Source: Pseudomonadota bacterium | Lineage (GTDB): Bacteria; Pseudomonadota; Gammaproteobacteria; Burkholderiales; JABEVD01 | Direction: 5' to 3' | NCBI GenBank assembly: GCA_021802545.1 | Contig: JAJZRS010000010.1 | Coordinates: 6,801-70,800, forward strand | DNA length: 64,000 nt | Part shown: one piece after another, positions 5,717 to 58,761 of the stretch | Layout of the letters: the number at the start of each line of letters is the position of its first letter | How positions within the stretch are numbered: the stretch's first letter is position 1 | Position numbers and translations under genes: made by a program | The notes under the pieces: model-generated | What the model was told of the DNA's origin: nothing | The model's database searches: none | The model's input: only the letters and a program-made list of their open reading frames with translations

Positions 5717-6884
5717 CAGGCGCAAGGTCCTCACCCTGAACTCGATCTCCTCCCTCGGGCTGGAGCGCTTTTCGTCCGACCGCTATCAGGTCGGCTCGAA
5801 GGTCGATCAGCCCGAGGCCATCCTGCTGCGCTCGTTCAAGATGCACGACATGGAAATTCCCTCCTCCGTGCTCGCAGTCGGGCGCGCAGGCGCGGGAACG
5901 AACAACATCCCCGTCCCGAAAATGACGGAAAGAGGCATCCCTGTCTTCAACACGCCAGGGGCGAACGCCAATGCGGTGAAGGAGCTCGTGCTCGCCGCTA
6001 TGCTGATGGGCGCGAGGAACCTGATTCCGGCGATCAAATTCGCCGATGGTCTTCAAGGTGAAGACATCGGAAAGCAGGTCGAGGAAGGCAAGAAGGCCTA
6101 CGCCGGTTCCGAGCTCCCCGGGCACACCCTGGGCATCATCGGGCTCGGCGCGATCGGCAGGCTGGTGGCGGACGCAGCGATCAGGCTCGGCATGAAGGTC
6201 AAGGGCTACGACCCTGAAATCACGGTCGATGCAGCATGGAGCCTGCCCTCCCAGGTCACCCGGGCCTACAGCATCGAAGACCTCTTGAAGGGCAGCGATT
6301 TCGTCTCGCTGCACATCCCGCTGCTCGATTCGACCCGGAACCTGATCGACGAGGCGCGCATCGCATCGATGAAGAAAGGCGCGATCTTGCTCAATTTCGC
6401 GCGAGAAGGCATCGTCGACGAGGATGCGGTGATCGGGGCGGTCCAATCAGGAAAGCTCAAATCCTACATCTGCGACTTCCCGAGCGCGAAGCTGAAAGGC
6501 CAGCCGAACATCGTGACGCTTCCCCATCTTGGCGCATCCACGAAGGAAGCCGAGGACAACTGCGCGATCATGGTCGCAGACCAGGTCATGGACTACCTCG
6601 AGAACGGCAACATCCGCAACACGGTGAATTTCCCGAACATCGAGATGCCCAGGGAATCCGCATTCAGGATTGCGATCGTGAACGCCAACGTGCCCAACAT
6701 GCTCGGCCAGATATCGACCGCATTCGCGGAGAGCGGCATCAACATCCACAACATGGCGAACAAGTCCCGCGGCGAGATCGCCTATACCCTCGTCGACATC
6801 GACTCCCCTTCTTCCGATGCGCTGCTCGACAAGATCGCGTCCATTCCAGGCGTGGTCAGGGTCAGGGACCTGACTCAGAAATGA
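5709..6884 (+). CDS. D-3-phosphoglycerate dehydrogenase-like 2-hydroxyacid dehydrogenase with C-terminal ACT-like domain
   Basis: 391-aa ORF. NAD-binding [13 protein letters not shown] and catalytic-region LPHLGAST. The C-terminal ~80 aa resemble an ACT domain. Overlaps the serC stop by 8 nt. Confidence 0.8.
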
Positions 6885-27691: not shown

Positions 27692-27952
27692 ATGAAGGCA
27701 GTCAGCTACAGCCATACCCGGCAGCATCTTGCGGAAATCATGAACGAAGTCACCGATGATCGGGCACCCGTCCTGATCACGCGCCAGAGCGGCAACCCTG
27801 TCGTCATGATGTCCCTGCAGGACTACAATGCGCTGGAAGAAACAGCCTATCTTCTGCGCAGCCCGAAAAATGCAAAGCGGCTTATCGAATCCATAGAGCA
27901 ATTGTTTACCCAAGGCGGCACGCAACGAGCACTGATCGAAGATGCCGATTAA
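27692..27952 (+). CDS. yefM: Type II antitoxin YefM (Phd/YefM family)
   Basis: 86-aa ORF, MKAVSYSHTRQHLAEIMNEVTDDRAPVLITRQSGNPVVMMSLQDYNALEETAYLLRSPKNAKRL. Confidence 0.92.
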   Translation: MKAVSYSHTRQHLAEIMNEVTDDRAPVLITRQSGNPVVMMSLQDYNALEETAYLLRSPKNAKRLIESIEQLFTQGGTQRALIEDAD

Positions 27953-28196
27953 GTTCTCCGATCAGGCTTGGGAAGACTACCTGTTCTGGCAAGCGAATGA
28001 CAAGACGACCCTGAAGCGAATCAATGCGCTGCTGAAAGACATACGGCGAACACCATATGACGGCATAGGAAAACCCGAACCGCTCAAGCACCACCTGTCC
28101 GGATTCTGGTCTCGCCGCATCGACGAGGAGCACAGGCTGGTTTACACGGTCAGCGACGACGCCATCCTTGTCGCCATGTGCCGTTATCATTACTGA
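27942..28196 (+). CDS. yoeB: Type II toxin YoeB (Txe/YoeB mRNA interferase)
   Basis: 84-aa ORF, FSDQAWEDYLFWQANDKTTLKRINALLKDIRRTPYDGIGKPEPLKHHLSGFWSRRIDEEHRLVY..CRYHY. 11-nt overlap with yefM. Confidence 0.92.
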   Translation: MPIKFSDQAWEDYLFWQANDKTTLKRINALLKDIRRTPYDGIGKPEPLKHHLSGFWSRRIDEEHRLVYTVSDDAILVAMCRYHY

Positions 28197-28223: not shown

Positions 28224-28487
28224 TCATCTCCGTCCTTTCAGCTGATCGATCTCCTCGAGCAGATCGGCGACGAGCGCGGCCAGTTCGACGGATGCATCGA
28301 AATTGCGCTCGATCTCGATCATTCTTCTCGCGCGCAAGAGGCTTTTAGCTGGAAAGATGTCCATATCGACGCCGGGGAAAAAGCCTTCCTGTATCCGGCA
28401 GGCCAGCCAATCGACTTCGACCCTGCAGATTCTCGCGGCTTCATCGAGCGTCACTTCCTCGACAAGAACACCAGTCAGTTCTTCCAT
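28224..28487 (-). CDS. cbpM: Chaperone modulatory protein CbpM-like (MerR-type HTH)
   Basis: Start MEELTGVLVEEVTLDEAARICRV at 28487, 1 nt after the cbpA stop. The size (87 aa) and the position downstream of cbpA fit CbpM. Confidence 0.72.
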   Translation of the reverse strand: MEELTGVLVEEVTLDEAARICRVEVDWLACRIQEGFFPGVDMDIFPAKSLLRARRMIEIERNFDASVELAALVADLLEEIDQLKGRR

Positions 28488-28488
28488 A

Positions 28489-29373
28489 TTACCCTCTCTT
28501 CCTCGGATCGAACGCGAGTTCCCTGGCCATGGTTTCATAAAGATCCCTGGCTTTCGGGGTGTCAGCCGGGGGGAGCACGACGAGCAGTTCCAGCAGCAGA
28601 TCTCCGGGCGGATCGCACGGTATTCCGCGTCCCTTCACGCGCAACAGCTTGCCGCTCTGTGCGCCGAAGGGAACCCGGACTTTCAGTGATCCTGAAGGCA
28701 ATTCGACAGAAACAACGCCGCCCAATGCCGCTTCCCAGGGCGCAAGCGGCAGCGTCAAATATAGATCGCGTCCCTCGACGCGAAGCGTTTCATGAGACCT
28801 GAAATGCACTTCGAGAAGGAGATCACCGGCCTCTCCGCCAGCCCCACTGCTTCCCTGTCCGGCAAGCCTGATGATCTGCCCTTCGCGCACCCCCTTGGGT
28901 ATCCTGACGTTGAGCGAATGCTTCTGCATGACAGGCCTGCCATACCCGTCTGCTTTCGGCACGCGCAGGCTGATTTGGCGCACGGCGCCATTGAAGGCAT
29001 CCTCAATGTCCAGCATGATCTTGGCATGATGATCCTCCCCCCTGCGGCCCATGCGTCCGAACAGCTCGGAAAAGAAATCGCTGAAATCGCCGCCGCGGCC
29101 CGAAAACTCGAACCCCGCATCCCAGCCGGGAGGCGCCCTGAATTCCTGCCCCTGACTGTACCCGCTCCCGAGTTGATCGTATGCCGCGCGCTTCTCTGCA
29201 TCAGAAAGGACGGCATACGCCTCGTTGACTTCCTTCATGCGGTGCTCGGCGTCCCGCTCCTTCGACACGTCAGGATGATATTTCCTGGCGAGCTTGCGGA
29301 ACGCCTTCTTGATCTCGTCGAAGGACGCGTCCCGGCCTACGCCAAGGATTTCGTAGTAGTTCTTGAATTCCAT
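28489..29373 (-). CDS. cbpA: Curved-DNA-binding protein CbpA (DnaJ-like co-chaperone lacking the zinc finger)
   Basis: J-domain MEFKNYYEILGV..KKAFRKLARKYHPDVSKE from the ATG at 29373, followed by the DnaJ C-terminal domains. Confidence 0.88.
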   Translation of the reverse strand: MEFKNYYEILGVGRDASFDEIKKAFRKLARKYHPDVSKERDAEHRMKEVNEAYAVLSDAEKRAAYDQLGSGYSQGQEFRAPPGWDAGFEFSGRGGDFSDFFSELFGRMGRRGEDHHAKIMLDIEDAFNGAVRQISLRVPKADGYGRPVMQKHSLNVRIPKGVREGQIIRLAGQGSSGAGGEAGDLLLEVHFRSHETLRVEGRDLYLTLPLAPWEAALGGVVSVELPSGSLKVRVPFGAQSGKLLRVKGRGIPCDPPGDLLLELLVVLPPADTPKARDLYETMARELAFDPRKRG

Positions 29374-29444
29374 GAATTCCCCCCTTGCAATCAAGCATAG
29401 TCAAGGAGTGAACCGGAAGGCAAGGGGCGGCCACGCCGCCCTTT

Positions 29445-30077
29445 TCAGCGCTGGGGAACCAGGGAACCGTATGCGGAATGGCTGACGGATTCCGCCTGAA
29501 ATTTCACCGTTCTGCGCTCGACAGGACCGCCCATGATGGCCACGCCTAGCGCCGAACCGGACACCACTTTCGTGCCCGCAAGCGCGATGTTCGGGAAATC
29601 GTGAAGGGTCTTGCCTTCGCCCATGCCCGCATATTTCCTCACAGGCGCATGGTCTCCCGTGAGAGCGGACTGGTCGAGCAAAAAGTCCTTGCACGAAAGC
29701 AGCCTGACGTCCGCAGGCACGGTGTCTCCGGACTTCAGTTCGACAAGGTCGCCAGGCACGAGTTCATTCGCCGGGATTTCCCTCAGTTGCGGCGCATCAG
29801 GCGAAATGTGCACGCCGAAATCGGCTGCAACGGCTTTCGGCACGGCAGAGCGCCTGCCGCGGCGCAATACGGTCGCCTTCAAGCCTTTTGCAGATTTCCT
29901 GCAGAACTTGACGCGGTCTTCCGCTTCACGGTCGAGCAGTCCGTCTTCTGTCGTGGCGAGTTTTTCAAGCAGGGCTTCTCGCTCGAGACGTGCAGCAGCG
30001 ACTACCCATGCATGGTACGAGCGCCCATCGATGAGGCGCGAGAACGCTTCGAAAAGCGCGCGAAATTTCAGGATCAT
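29445..30077 (-). CDS. P-type ATPase N-terminal/actuator-domain-like protein without transmembrane segments (fragment or domesticated remnant)
   Basis: LVPGDLVELKSGDTVPADVRLL..LLDQSALTGDHAPV..NIALAGTKVVSGSA matches the A-domain of cation P-type ATPases. TM1/TM2 and everything after the A-domain are missing, and TGES is changed to TGDH. ATG at 30077 is preceded by the AAGGAG SD. Confidence 0.5.
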   Translation of the reverse strand: MILKFRALFEAFSRLIDGRSYHAWVVAAARLEREALLEKLATTEDGLLDREAEDRVKFCRKSAKGLKATVLRRGRRSAVPKAVAADFGVHISPDAPQLREIPANELVPGDLVELKSGDTVPADVRLLSCKDFLLDQSALTGDHAPVRKYAGMGEGKTLHDFPNIALAGTKVVSGSALGVAIMGGPVERRTVKFQAESVSHSAYGSLVPQR

Positions 30078-30424
30078 TTCAGTCTCCTTCGGCAGGCGCA
30101 CGGCCGCCATTAAACGACGGAAACGGAAGACTGAAGAGGGGTGTTGCTTCGGCCTTCCCGCTTTTGCCCAGCGGAAAGAGCCTCTACAGGATGGAAGGGG
30201 CTTTCGCTAGGCGTTCAGATTACTGCAACTGTCCAAGGCGAATGCCTCCTTTTCTAATGAACATGGGGATATTCTAAAATATTAGAAATACAAAATCAAG
30301 ATCCGAGCCTGAGAAGGGCATCGGTGGTGCACGAAGGGAATTCTGCGCATCATCCTGGGGCGCATTGCCCGGCACGTCAGCCAGGAAAAAACGCAATCCA
30401 TTGATATTGAAAGATATGTTAACC

Positions 30425-30440
30425 TGGCACCAATATTGCT
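30425..30440 (+). promoter_or_regulatory. Sigma-54 type -24/-12 promoter element
   Basis: TGGCAC-CAATA-TTGCT. GG at 30426-27 and GC at 30438-39 have the canonical 12-nt register (consensus TGGCACG-N4-TTGCW). Confidence 0.5.
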
Positions 30441-30449
30441 ATAAAAAAG

Positions 30450-30514
30450 GGTGAGAGCATATTATGCTTTCACCCTCCTCCAACTTTCGGGCGCCTCTGG
30501 CGCCCGCTTTTTTT
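30450..30514 (+). ncRNA. Candidate ~65-nt sRNA (hairpin - CACCCUCCUCC - intrinsic terminator), convergent with small ORF 1
   Basis: Starts ~11 nt after the -12 GC. A 12-bp hairpin spans 30449-30475; it has a G-U pair on this strand that would be a C-A mismatch on the other. A single-stranded CCCUCCUCCAACUUUC follows. The terminator is GGGCGCC-UCU-GGCGCCC plus U7 (30489-30514). Confidence 0.4.
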
Positions 30515-30624
30515 CACTTGCCTTTTCTTTTGAAATTGCCGTCGTCAGCCAGCAGAATCACGGCCGGGAGAATAATGTTGGTGATGAAAAAAAGTATGTA
30601 CCAGGCATGAACGTCCATTTGCAT
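30514..30624 (-). CDS. Small hydrophobic peptide, 36 aa (paralog 1)
   Basis: Own translation: MQMDVHAWYILFFITNIILPAVILLADDGNFKRKGK. SD AAGGAG lies 4 nt upstream. Followed by hairpin plus U6 (30475-30443 on minus). Too short for the ORF track. Confidence 0.55.
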   Translation of the reverse strand: MQMDVHAWYILFFITNIILPAVILLADDGNFKRKGK

Positions 30625-30836
30625 TGCTCCTTCCTAATCGGTTTTTGCGTTGTTTTGACGCTTGAACGACTGAATCGACACGAGCGCCGGCCGCTAAGGC
30701 TATGAGAAGTATGCACAAAAGACGAGTCTAAATCAAGGTCTTTGGGACGCTTGATCGGCTGATACATCGACTTTCGACGCGGTGAAGACTCATTGATCGT
30801 CTTCACCCGCCCCGGCGCTTGAAGCGCCGTCTGAAA

Positions 30837-30941
30837 TTATTTGTTTTTTCTTTTGAATGTGCCGTCATCCAGCAGGAGAATCAGCCCAGGAAGGGCGAAA
30901 GTCGTGATGAAAAAGATGACGTACCAGGTTTGCACTTCCAT
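30837..30941 (-). CDS. Small hydrophobic peptide, 34 aa (paralog 2)
   Basis: MEVQTWYVIFFITTFALPGLILLLDDGTFKRKNK, with SD GGAGGA 5 nt upstream of the ATG at 30941. It is the C-terminal part of track ORF 30837-31028. Aligns with paralog 1 along its full length (WY-I-FFIT...P..ILL-DDG-FKRK-K). Confidence 0.55.
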   Translation of the reverse strand: MEVQTWYVIFFITTFALPGLILLLDDGTFKRKNK

Positions 30942-57997: not shown

Positions 57998-58089
57998 AAG
58001 CACCTCGCGAAATGCCGTCCATCTGCCCAATCATACCATTTGTCGGATGGCGCATTGACAATAAAGCGCTCATGGTTTTTGATTGAATC

Positions 58090-58150
58090 GTGAGCCTCTT
58101 GAAGGCTCCCACCCTCCTCCTTACGGCCGGATCATTCCGGCCTCTTTTTT
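58090..58150 (+). ncRNA. Candidate sRNA 2 (hairpin - CACCCUCCUCC - intrinsic terminator), sibling of the 30450-30514 candidate
   Basis: Possible promoter TTGACA (58055-60), N17, TTTGAT. Hairpin GAGCC-N7-GGCTC (58092-58108). CACCCTCCTCC at 58110-58120 is identical to 30471-30481. Terminator GGCCGGA-TCA-TTCCGGCC plus TCTTTTTTT (58125-58150). Confidence 0.35.
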
Positions 58151-58761
58151 TATTTCACCTGCAGCCTGAAGCGGATGTCCTGGGTTGAGGGAACGGGCTT
58201 GCCGTCCTGCAATGCAGGAAAGAATTTCCAGGTGTTCAGAGTATCGAGAACGGCCTGATTCAAGCCGGGAAGCGGCGTTGCGATGATGAGCTCGACCTTG
58301 GTCGAACCGTCTTCGGCGATGTGGAATCTCGCCACGACCAGGACATCCATCGCATCCTGCCTGAATTCGTCCGGAATCACGGGCTTCGGGTTGTAAATGG
58401 CGCGCGCGCCCATTGCGTTGCCATCCTGCATCGGCGCCTGAGGTGGCGCAGGAGGAGCGGGTTTTGCAGGCGGCGCGGGCTTGGCTTGAGGCGCAGGTTT
58501 TTCAGGCGGTGCAGGCCTTGCAGCAGGTTTCGAAGGCTGAGGCCTGGGGGCAATCCTGGGCCCTGGGGCCGCTCTGACAGGCGCAGGCTTGGGCGCAGGC
58601 ATCTCGATCAGCTTCGCGTCGATCGGCTTTTGTTTCAAGGGGGCAGTCTGCGGCCTGGACAGGAATGTCCCGAACAGCCACATCAGCGTGAGCCATGCGA
58701 GCAGCGCGCCGCCCAATGTCCATGGCAGGCGATGCCAGGGATTGTCCAATTCACTGCCCAT
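58150..58761 (-). CDS. tonB: Energy transducer TonB
   Basis: 203-aa ORF. N-terminal anchor, Pro-rich spacer (KPAPVRAAPGPRIAPRPQPSKPAARPAPPEKPAPQAKPAPPAKPAPPAPP), C-terminal TonB domain. Confidence 0.85.
   Translation of the reverse strand: MGSELDNPWHRLPWTLGGALLAWLTLMWLFGTFLSRPQTAPLKQKPIDAKLIEMPAPKPAPVRAAPGPRIAPRPQPSKPAARPAPPEKPAPQAKPAPPAKPAPPAPPQAPMQDGNAMGARAIYNPKPVIPDEFRQDAMDVLVVARFHIAEDGSTKVELIIATPLPGLNQAVLDTLNTWKFFPALQDGKPVPSTQDIRFRLQVK

Follow-up and report, generated by a model that had tools for sequence, protein, structure and literature searches.

We analysed a 64,000-nt stretch of DNA (the window; positions 6,801 to 70,800 of contig JAJZRS010000010.1, assembly GCA_021802545.1; lineage Burkholderiales, JABEVD01), focusing on a plus-strand element that meets a minus-strand gene for a small hydrophobic peptide tail to tail. 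This element is most likely an independent gene for a trans-acting small RNA (sRNA) of ~66 nt, which would depend on sigma-54 for its transcription, carry an anti-Shine-Dalgarno (anti-SD) seed and represent a new RNA family. A first-pass annotation made from the sequence alone had read the region as a type I toxin-antitoxin-like layout, with two tandem genes for hydrophobic peptides facing a convergent, 3'-overlapping sRNA of ~65 nt. The convergent sRNA gene of that reading is real, as judged from its conservation and its covariation, and it abuts the stop codon of peptide gene 1. The toxin-antitoxin relation did not hold up, as set out below.

The sRNA gene opens with a sigma-54-type promoter on the plus strand, read from the sequence as a -24 TGGCAC and a -12 TTGC with a 5-nt spacer (TGGCAC-N5-TTGC, 30425-30439). 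We placed the 5' end of the RNA by the usual spacing of 11-13 nt from the -12 GC to the start site, which predicts a transcript of ~66 nt at 30449-30514 (plus strand), in agreement with its fold, a covariance model and family covariation. In the predicted fold, a 12-bp 5' hairpin with a 3-nt loop (30449-30475) is followed by the single-stranded 12-nt linker UCCUCCAACUUU (30476-30487) and then by a GC hairpin of 8 bp, all GC (30488-30506), with a U7 run (30508-30514). The putative anti-SD seed, CCCUCCUCCAACUUU, occupies 30473-30487. The 66-nt sequence folds with an energy of -35.8 kcal/mol (z = -8.4), and 0 of 200 shuffles were equally stable. A terminator scan picked the GC hairpin and U7 as a termination site, and this segment (30488-30514) appears to serve both strands, as the intrinsic terminator of the sRNA and, back to back with it, that of peptide gene 1. 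The two genes have a single nucleotide in common, the last U of the sRNA U-run overlapping the TGA stop codon of peptide 1 (30514-30516), and when viewed from the peptide strand an A-run and then the GC hairpin lie directly 3' of that stop codon. Downstream of the element we found no conserved plus-strand open reading frame (ORF).

Recovering the loci around orthologs of peptide 1 gave eight loci in the genus, all of which read, in the direction of the sRNA, CTGGCAY-N5-TTGCT, ~10 nt, a hairpin, CCTCCTCCA, a GC hairpin and T7. This is the order that the first-pass annotation had described for the window (a sigma-54 element, then hairpin, CU-rich linker and GC hairpin plus U7 ending at 30514), and it is kept at all of these loci. 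On the peptide side, a run of five to seven A residues and the hairpin immediately follow the peptide-1 stop codon in all eight orthologs. The promoter, both hairpins, the core CCUCCUCC and the terminator are retained at these eight loci while synonymous sites of the adjoining peptide gene differ at ~56% (mean pS 0.56), and the sRNA element is conserved far past the neutral expectation. A covariance model of promoter plus RNA (R1) scored 102 bits at the window sRNA and 75-104 bits across the genus, and it found one strong copy in the window genome, where the sRNA is a single-copy gene.

We examined the fold in an alignment of 36 distinct sequences made with MAFFT and not fitted to any structure. 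RNAalifold, run on top of this alignment, predicts both the 5' hairpin and the terminator. Standard pairs are formed in 96.3% of the cells of the proposed structure, compared with 42-53% when the partners are slid by 1-3 columns; similarly, the covariation score is 0.455 for the proposed structure and 0.10-0.15 for the slid controls, and 0 of 500 shuffles reached the observed value. Nine of the 16 pairs have changed on both sides. Compensatory changes affect three of eight pairs in the outer 5' stem (GARRGCNN / NNGYUUUC; 96.5% of cells paired) and six of eight in the terminator stem (96.2% of cells paired), and between these two covarying helices lies CCUCCUCC, which is itself invariant. Moreover, CCTCCTCC within the seed is identical in all 36 aligned members, as is the TGGCA...TGCT promoter, which is also invariant in the eight genus orthologs.

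The same unit extends well beyond the genus. Of the genomes sampled from the order (Betaproteobacteria), R1 matched 48 of 301 at E <= 0.01, representing 28 of 142 genera. A scan of 185,579 species genomes for an exact promoter-plus-core pattern (TGGCAY-N6-TGCT, a gap of 19-49, then TTCA-N1-2-CCTCCTCC) returned 40 loci, about 30 of which are betaproteobacterial or Burkholderiales metagenome-assembled genomes (MAGs), Pelomicrobium, UBA6910, or contigs that carry the same RNA but were mis-binned; the others fit a rough estimate of ~8 chance matches. Most carriers are MAGs of uncultured bacteria. The RNA of other genera is longer (~88 nt, against 66 nt in the genus), its core UUUUCAUCCUCCUCCUUUGG is nearly invariant, and the 3' flank of the seed reads UUUGG where the genus has AACUUU; the loop and inner part of the 5' hairpin also differ in length between genera. 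In other genera the gene often lies downstream of a PLD/cardiolipin-synthase-like gene and upstream of an ABC-exporter gene. With a broader covariance model (R2), 44 of 400 genomes belonging to other orders of the class were also found to have the design; the units there could be either homologs or repeated inventions, and the design may be far more widespread than the order. Examples from those orders (L111-L121; 90-128 nt, 38-46 bits with R2) combine a sigma-54 box, a 5' hairpin, an unpaired (C)UCCUCC(C/U)UU and a terminator, and none of them reaches any Rfam gathering score.

Promoters of the sigma-54 type are silent until an enhancer-binding protein is activated, and they have activator sites ~80-150 bp upstream, often with an integration host factor (IHF) site between. 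The sRNA promoter has the canonical -24/-12 spacing together with upstream boxes and an IHF-like box. Only 40 TGGCAY-N5-YTGC sites occur in the 2.77-Mb window genome, among them the promoters of nifH, pilin and flagellar genes; because these genes carry this promoter type, sigma-54 would be in use in the organism. A GGTGC box inside GGTGGTGCAC (30326-30330, plus strand), 99 nt upstream of the -24 element, is a putative activator half-site. Across genera, 18 of the 31 family promoters that we scored have a GGTGC/GCACC box at about -99 (within 3 nt), and in many a second such box lies ~30 bp closer, at -69 or -79; these boxes average 2.0 per 180 nt, compared with 0.77 in background windows of the same loci. 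The box CAATCCATTGATA (30394-30406), ~30 nt upstream of the -24 element, is the reverse of WATCAA-N4-TTR and thus a candidate IHF site. An IHF-like box stands at -30/-31 in 12 of the 31 promoters, and ATTGATATT is kept in six of the eight genus orthologs.

The shape of the upstream boxes offers a hint about the activator. We take the GCACC-N5-GGTGC palindrome to be the NtrC site type, and in the window genome two nitrogen-assimilation-type genes, one for an ANTAR response regulator and the other NMT1_2 (NrtA-like), have sigma-54 promoters with full palindromes of this form at -89 to -99, while a HisKA/HATPase (NtrB-like) gene has a sigma-54 promoter with single GCACC boxes at -102 and -176. 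The promoters of the sRNA family carry half-sites or variant pairs and not the full palindrome. We put the odds that NtrC or a close paralog activates the sRNA at roughly even. In all, palindromes of this type were noted at -56 to -99 of sigma-54 promoters of the window genome (G000) on contigs C12 (~30822 and ~32917), C32 (177887), C10 (52497) and C40 (19500, in the reverse arrangement GGTGC-N5-GCACC). The genes behind these palindrome promoters are the ANTAR response regulator, the NrtA-like gene, an 886-aa gene, a 583-aa gene and an OmpL-like porin, and together they form a putative NtrC regulon of the window organism.

These features suggest a model for the action of the sRNA. RNA polymerase with sigma-54 would bind the -24/-12 box and stay closed until activated by an enhancer-binding protein seated ~100 bp upstream at the GGTGC-type boxes, with help from a bend at the IHF-like box; the boxes point to NtrC or a close paralog, which would make nitrogen limitation the likely signal. 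The transcript would then fold into the 5' hairpin and the terminator hairpin, holding the invariant CCUCCUCC single-stranded between them. As a mimic of the 3' end of 16S rRNA, this core would pair with the GGAGG Shine-Dalgarno (SD) region and a few flanking bases in a set of mRNAs, blocking translation initiation and probably speeding mRNA decay. In the genus, the sRNA gene would have come to stand tail to tail with peptide gene 1, with one bidirectional terminator serving both. The shared terminator may allow some antisense cross-talk, which in this model would not be the purpose of the sRNA.

The minus-strand mini-ORFs at 30514-30624 and 30837-30941 translate exactly as the first-pass annotation had quoted them, and they are real coding genes under purifying selection. 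They had been given 36 and 34 codons. The latter size stands for peptide gene 2 (30837-30941, minus strand), which encodes the 34-aa MEVQTWYVIFFITTFALPGLILLLDDGTFKRKNK behind the SD AAGGAGGA. For peptide 1 there are two in-frame ATGs, at 30624 (36 aa) and 30618 (34 aa); the SD GGAAGGAG lies 8 nt before the second but is a mere 2 nt from the first, and every ortholog starts with M-D/E-V/A. Because SD spacing and ortholog starts both favour the ATG at 30618, peptide gene 1 is probably 30514-30618 (minus strand), encoding the 34-aa MDVHAWYILFFITNIILPAVILLADDGNFKRKGK. Among its eight orthologs, pairwise dN/dS is 0.07-0.33, mean pN is 0.19 against a pS of 0.56, and variable sites by codon position number 15/10/24 of 31 codons, the pattern of a coding sequence under purifying selection.

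The two peptides are paralogs, as had been proposed, with 62% identity, a predicted hydrophobic helix and a basic tail. Their shared features are a short acidic N-terminus, a W-Y helix start, a helix of ~20 residues with an internal proline, a DDGNF motif and a K/R tail (DDGNF-KRK), which by the positive-inside rule would be cytoplasmic. By six-frame search, all eight other genus genomes carry the family, whereas the 32 genomes that we sampled from other genera of the order yielded just one marginal match (E = 0.7); the range of the family thus appears to be confined almost entirely to the genus. Each genome has three to four copies, of which only one adjoins the sRNA. In the window genome, a third copy, MDNPDWWYWIFFITTFLLPGVILLLDDGNFSRKSKH, lies on another contig (C1) beside an alpha/beta-hydrolase gene and a tRNA, and a tandem copy is also found in one further genus member (G008). 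A more distant paralog of 30 aa (MQAVPWLVLFVFIMPA...GNIKKKQ) occurs in every genus genome as well. The genes of this subfamily (L012 and L016-L021, one per genus genome; 29-31 aa, MQA[VL]PWL[VI]LFVFIMPA..I.L.D.GNIK.K) have their own SD and an ordinary terminator, and the same convergent gene always lies downstream.

A profile search of 1.84 billion representative proteins returned only 12 clusters for the peptide family, and the distant clusters are solitary and in unrelated contexts, for example between peptidase S9 and GGDEF-EAL genes. In the representative library we also noted a predicted protein of 74 aa (P0009) with three tandem VLLPSIILLEDD units that resemble the helix end and acidic motif of the peptides; it could be an artefact of repeats, or else peptide units fused into an array. 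Neither peptide matched Pfam or NCBIfam at E <= 10, no curated model of KdpF/CydX/CcoQ-type small membrane families matched, and no conserved partner complex lies next to the peptide genes. The first-pass annotation had suggested looking for a conserved partner in related genomes, and none emerged: the neighbours differ from paralog to paralog, being the dsr tail in one case, the alpha/beta hydrolase and tRNA in another, and the peptidase S9 / GGDEF-EAL pair in a third. The two window copies stand at the very end of the dsr row (dsrAB...OPN-thioredoxin), near genes for thioredoxin, a CobB/CbiA-type amidase (DsrN-like) and an NrfD (DsrP-like) protein. The peptides are a separate, genus-restricted family of single-pass membrane peptides.

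Two further ideas about the peptide strand were set aside. That the peptides might be subunits or leaders of the adjacent P-type ATPase-like ORF was rejected because that ORF is a stand-alone actuator protein that is missing there in half of the genus loci, and a third mini-ORF, with GGAGGAGGG in the 3' flank followed by an ATG, was rejected because that ATG is not conserved. The actuator gene itself (29445-30110, minus strand) encodes 221 aa, and its similarity to the E1-E2 ATPase family is limited to the actuator part (PF00122, 63 bits); since two other genus members have orthologs, 206-222 aa long, it is a kept gene and not a fresh pseudogene. Between the two peptide genes (30625-30836, minus strand), two hairpins lie 3' of the peptide-2 stop codon (GGCGCTTCAAGCGCC and GGTGAAGACGATCAATGAGTCTTCACC), both without a U-tract.

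Several points count against our account of the sRNA as a trans-acting regulator. The start site, size and expression of the RNA are all deduced from sequence. The window promoter has one GGTGC half-site and no full NtrC palindrome, and the activator proposed here is conjectural. Because anti-SD pairing is so generic, predicted targets are uninformative; spurious ORFs account for many of the top matches. Finally, the eight genus loci recovered around peptide 1 all keep the sRNA next to the peptide gene, and the peptide side is syntenic, whereas what lies upstream of the sRNA promoter varies by species; this leaves room for a functional local link.

Of the alternatives, the one that survives best builds on this adjacency and proposes local cis-antisense cross-talk without toxicity, confined to the genus; as the explanation of the element we consider it rather unlikely. 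Here the 3' UTR (untranslated region) of peptide 1 would read through the bidirectional terminator on its weak side and be complementary to the whole sRNA, and the two transcripts would reduce each other, whether through cleavage by RNase III, sponging or collision of polymerases over the sigma-54 promoter, tying the dsr-tail peptide to the signal that induces the sRNA. Read from the peptide strand, the GC hairpin comes after an A-run and runs into AAAGUUGG instead of a U-tract, so that termination should leak. The sRNA of the genus is also the shortened form with the altered seed flank. However, the kept adjacency could be plain inheritance within one genus. A possible terminator for read-through peptide-1 mRNA, the minus-strand copy of the sRNA 5' hairpin (30449-30477) followed by T6 (30448-30443), can be read from the sequence but is weak and is present in the window only, the T-run not being conserved in other genus members. 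Moreover, cross-talk of this kind would add to a trans-acting role and not replace it.

The toxin-antitoxin reading takes the same geometry further, with peptide 1, and perhaps peptide 2, as a membrane-damaging toxin and the convergent sRNA as an antitoxin acting through the 3' overlap, SD pairing or both. The peptides have the size, single hydrophobic helix and basic tail of many type I toxins, the sRNA gene abuts the peptide-1 stop codon in all eight genus loci, and in the window a read-through peptide mRNA ending at the 5' hairpin and T6 would form a perfect 66-nt duplex with the sRNA. The layout also recalls Bacillus subtilis txpA/RatA and bsrG/SR4, in which a small hydrophobic peptide gene and a convergent RNA gene likewise meet at their 3' ends in a convergent overlap. 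Unlike in those systems, RNA and peptide are not inherited together here, the promoter of the RNA is activator-dependent, and both the overlap and any toxicity are putative. The sRNA family occurs in at least 28 genera and, outside this genus, never with a convergent peptide gene: no convergent small hydrophobic ORF follows the matched RNAs in other genera, and R1 found no match next to other members of the peptide family, in the genus or elsewhere. Conversely, the sRNA is missing beside paralogs of the peptide within the same genomes and beside its distant relatives in others. Toxin and antitoxin, which as a module should occur together, thus part company outside this one adjacency.

SD pairing gives the toxin-antitoxin reading little further help. 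The first-pass annotation had noted that the CCUCCU of the sRNA is complementary to the AGGAGG SD of peptide gene 2. The complementarity exists, but it is that of generic SD pairing: when we compared seed pairing across the 16,091 SD-bearing candidate start regions of the genome, peptide 2 ranked 5,948 (duplex of -12.5 kcal/mol) and peptide 1 ranked 10,328 (-9.9 kcal/mol), around a median start region of -11.2 kcal/mol; the third peptide copy, on contig C1, ranked 712 (-18.4 kcal/mol). Type I antitoxin RNAs are made continuously and in excess over the toxin mRNA. A sigma-54 promoter is a poor fit for such an RNA because it is off unless its activator fires, and the supposed antitoxin would be absent most of the time. 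The purifying selection and the conserved DDGNF-KRK motif of the peptides would fit any small membrane protein, and this motif, the low dN/dS and the stable synteny across species suggest a small membrane protein with a housekeeping role rather than a mobile toxin; the minus-strand T-run on which the perfect duplex depends is, as noted, not conserved. Overall, the sRNA and peptide genes are very unlikely to be a toxin-antitoxin pair, and the layout is better explained by two unrelated genes with a common terminator.

That the element is no RNA gene at all is the least credible alternative and very unlikely. It would then be a bidirectional terminator beside a sigma-54-like motif that arose by chance, or else the leader of some longer sigma-54 transcript. 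Convergent genes often have GC hairpins flanked by A and T runs between them, and the promoter scan is a consensus match only, but the -24/-12 box, its fixed spacing to the 5' hairpin, the invariant CCUCCUCC and the positioned upstream boxes recur in dozens of genera and in different gene contexts, the 5' hairpin covaries, and the terminator is strong (8 GC pairs and U7) and is not followed by a conserved plus-strand ORF.

Returning to the sRNA as a member of a new family, we compared it with known RNAs. No Rfam family matches the window element or typical members of the sRNA family; on the window element, Yfr1 (RF01116) scores 20.4 bits (gathering score 38), suhB/MmgR (RF00519) 19.7 bits (gathering score 41) and RF02278 15.2 bits (gathering score 50). 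RF02278 is not found above its cut-off anywhere in the window genome, its best hit there (22.7 bits) being at another locus. The RF02278 RNAs, known as betaproteobacterial 'toxic small' or double-hairpin RNAs, which include Burkholderia cenocepacia ncS03, ncS05, NcS27 (bdhR1) and ncS62 and Bordetella pertussis S17S, nevertheless come closest in design and host among characterised RNAs: at ~57-70 nt they have two hairpins, the second a terminator, and an unpaired C/U-rich stretch complementary to the ribosome-binding site (RBS), and they too come from betaproteobacterial hosts. Occlusion of the RBS has been demonstrated or proposed for them (PMC5688073, PMC11722255), with ncS03/05/27/62 (PMC4603805) acting as double-hairpin RNAs by anti-RBS pairing (PMC5688073) and S17S repressing many genes by ribosome-binding-site pairing (PMC11722255). 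They differ in having three to five copies per genome, against a single copy of the window sRNA. In addition, S17 is made from a sigma-A promoter as a 190-nt precursor cleaved by RNase E (PMC11722255), whereas the window element has a sigma-54 promoter placed to start transcription at the hairpin. The two-hairpin, CU-rich likeness is one of design and not proof of common descent.

Among sigma-54-dependent sRNAs, Pseudomonas NrsZ is under NtrC and nitrogen control (PMC4253122), and Campylobacter CJnc230 is a further example (PMC11187230). Like the window sRNA, these two RNAs, Vibrio Qrr (activated by LuxO) and enterobacterial GlmY (activated by GlrR) are each encoded behind a dedicated -24/-12 promoter with activator sites upstream and, in many cases, an IHF site, but neither sequence nor structure matches these Rfam families. 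The window seed is the plain anti-SD CCUCCUCC, in contrast to the specific seeds of Qrr, the protein decoy GlmY and the processed repeats of NrsZ. Burkholderia NcS25 was considered as a sigma-54-dependent relative and rejected, as no sigma-54 motif lies upstream of ncS25 (PMC10117139). Our literature search found no fitting sigma-54/RpoN-dependent anti-SD sRNA from Betaproteobacteria.

Other RNAs with the same two-hairpin design, a CU-rich linker or loop and presumably the same action are cyanobacterial Yfr1, rhizobial MmgR/suhB, alphaproteobacterial cuckoo/CcsR (CCUCCUCCC; PMC4615179) and Neisseria NmsR. They belong to other phyla or classes and have other promoters, and the likeness suggests convergent design rather than homology. 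One family member (L066) reaches 28.6 bits with the rhizobial MmgR model, far below threshold, and we discarded that link. Pattern matches in Hoeflea, at first sight an alphaproteobacterial relative, are actually guanidine-I riboswitches (RF00442, 80-83 bits) located directly behind a sigma-54-like TGGCAC-N5-CTGCT box in two Hoeflea sp. MAG chromosomes (L076, 1014-1157; L081, 3481-3623).

It is possible, although we would bet against the full claim, that the sRNA belongs to an old and unrecognised family of anti-SD sRNAs activated through sigma-54 by NtrC-type proteins, spread across Betaproteobacteria with look-alikes in other orders of the GTDB class Gammaproteobacteria. Such a family would be a missing post-transcriptional arm of the nitrogen regulon, or of another enhancer-binding-protein regulon, shutting down translation of a set of mRNAs, and in this sulfur-oxidising genus it would also be coupled by antisense to a dsr-linked peptide gene. 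Anti-SD sRNAs and sigma-54-dependent sRNAs are each well known, and a conserved family that unites both is absent from Rfam and from the papers that we could search. This one is widely distributed in environmental Betaproteobacteria, its carriers including sulfur and iron oxidisers, Pelomicrobium and numerous MAGs from lakes and groundwater. Should NtrC be the activator, the family would link nitrogen status directly to translational repression, and it would be easy to annotate in thousands of genomes. For their part, the 34-aa DDGNF-KRK peptides are an unannotated small-protein family under selection at the end of the dsr operon in one genus, and a lead for small proteins of sulfur oxidation.

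Elsewhere in the window, a second RNA candidate of the same design lies on the plus strand at 58085-58151, with a hairpin (GAGCCUCUUGAAGGCUC), the unpaired stretch CCACCCUCCUCCUUAC and a GC hairpin with U7; it has no sigma-54 box, folds with z = -3.8, scores 25 bits with R1 and has no BLAST-level match in other genus genomes. A type II toxin gene of the YoeB family (27942-28196, plus strand; PF06769, E = 1e-40) is located near the sRNA and peptide genes and adjoins a cbpA-cbpM-like pair (28224-29394).

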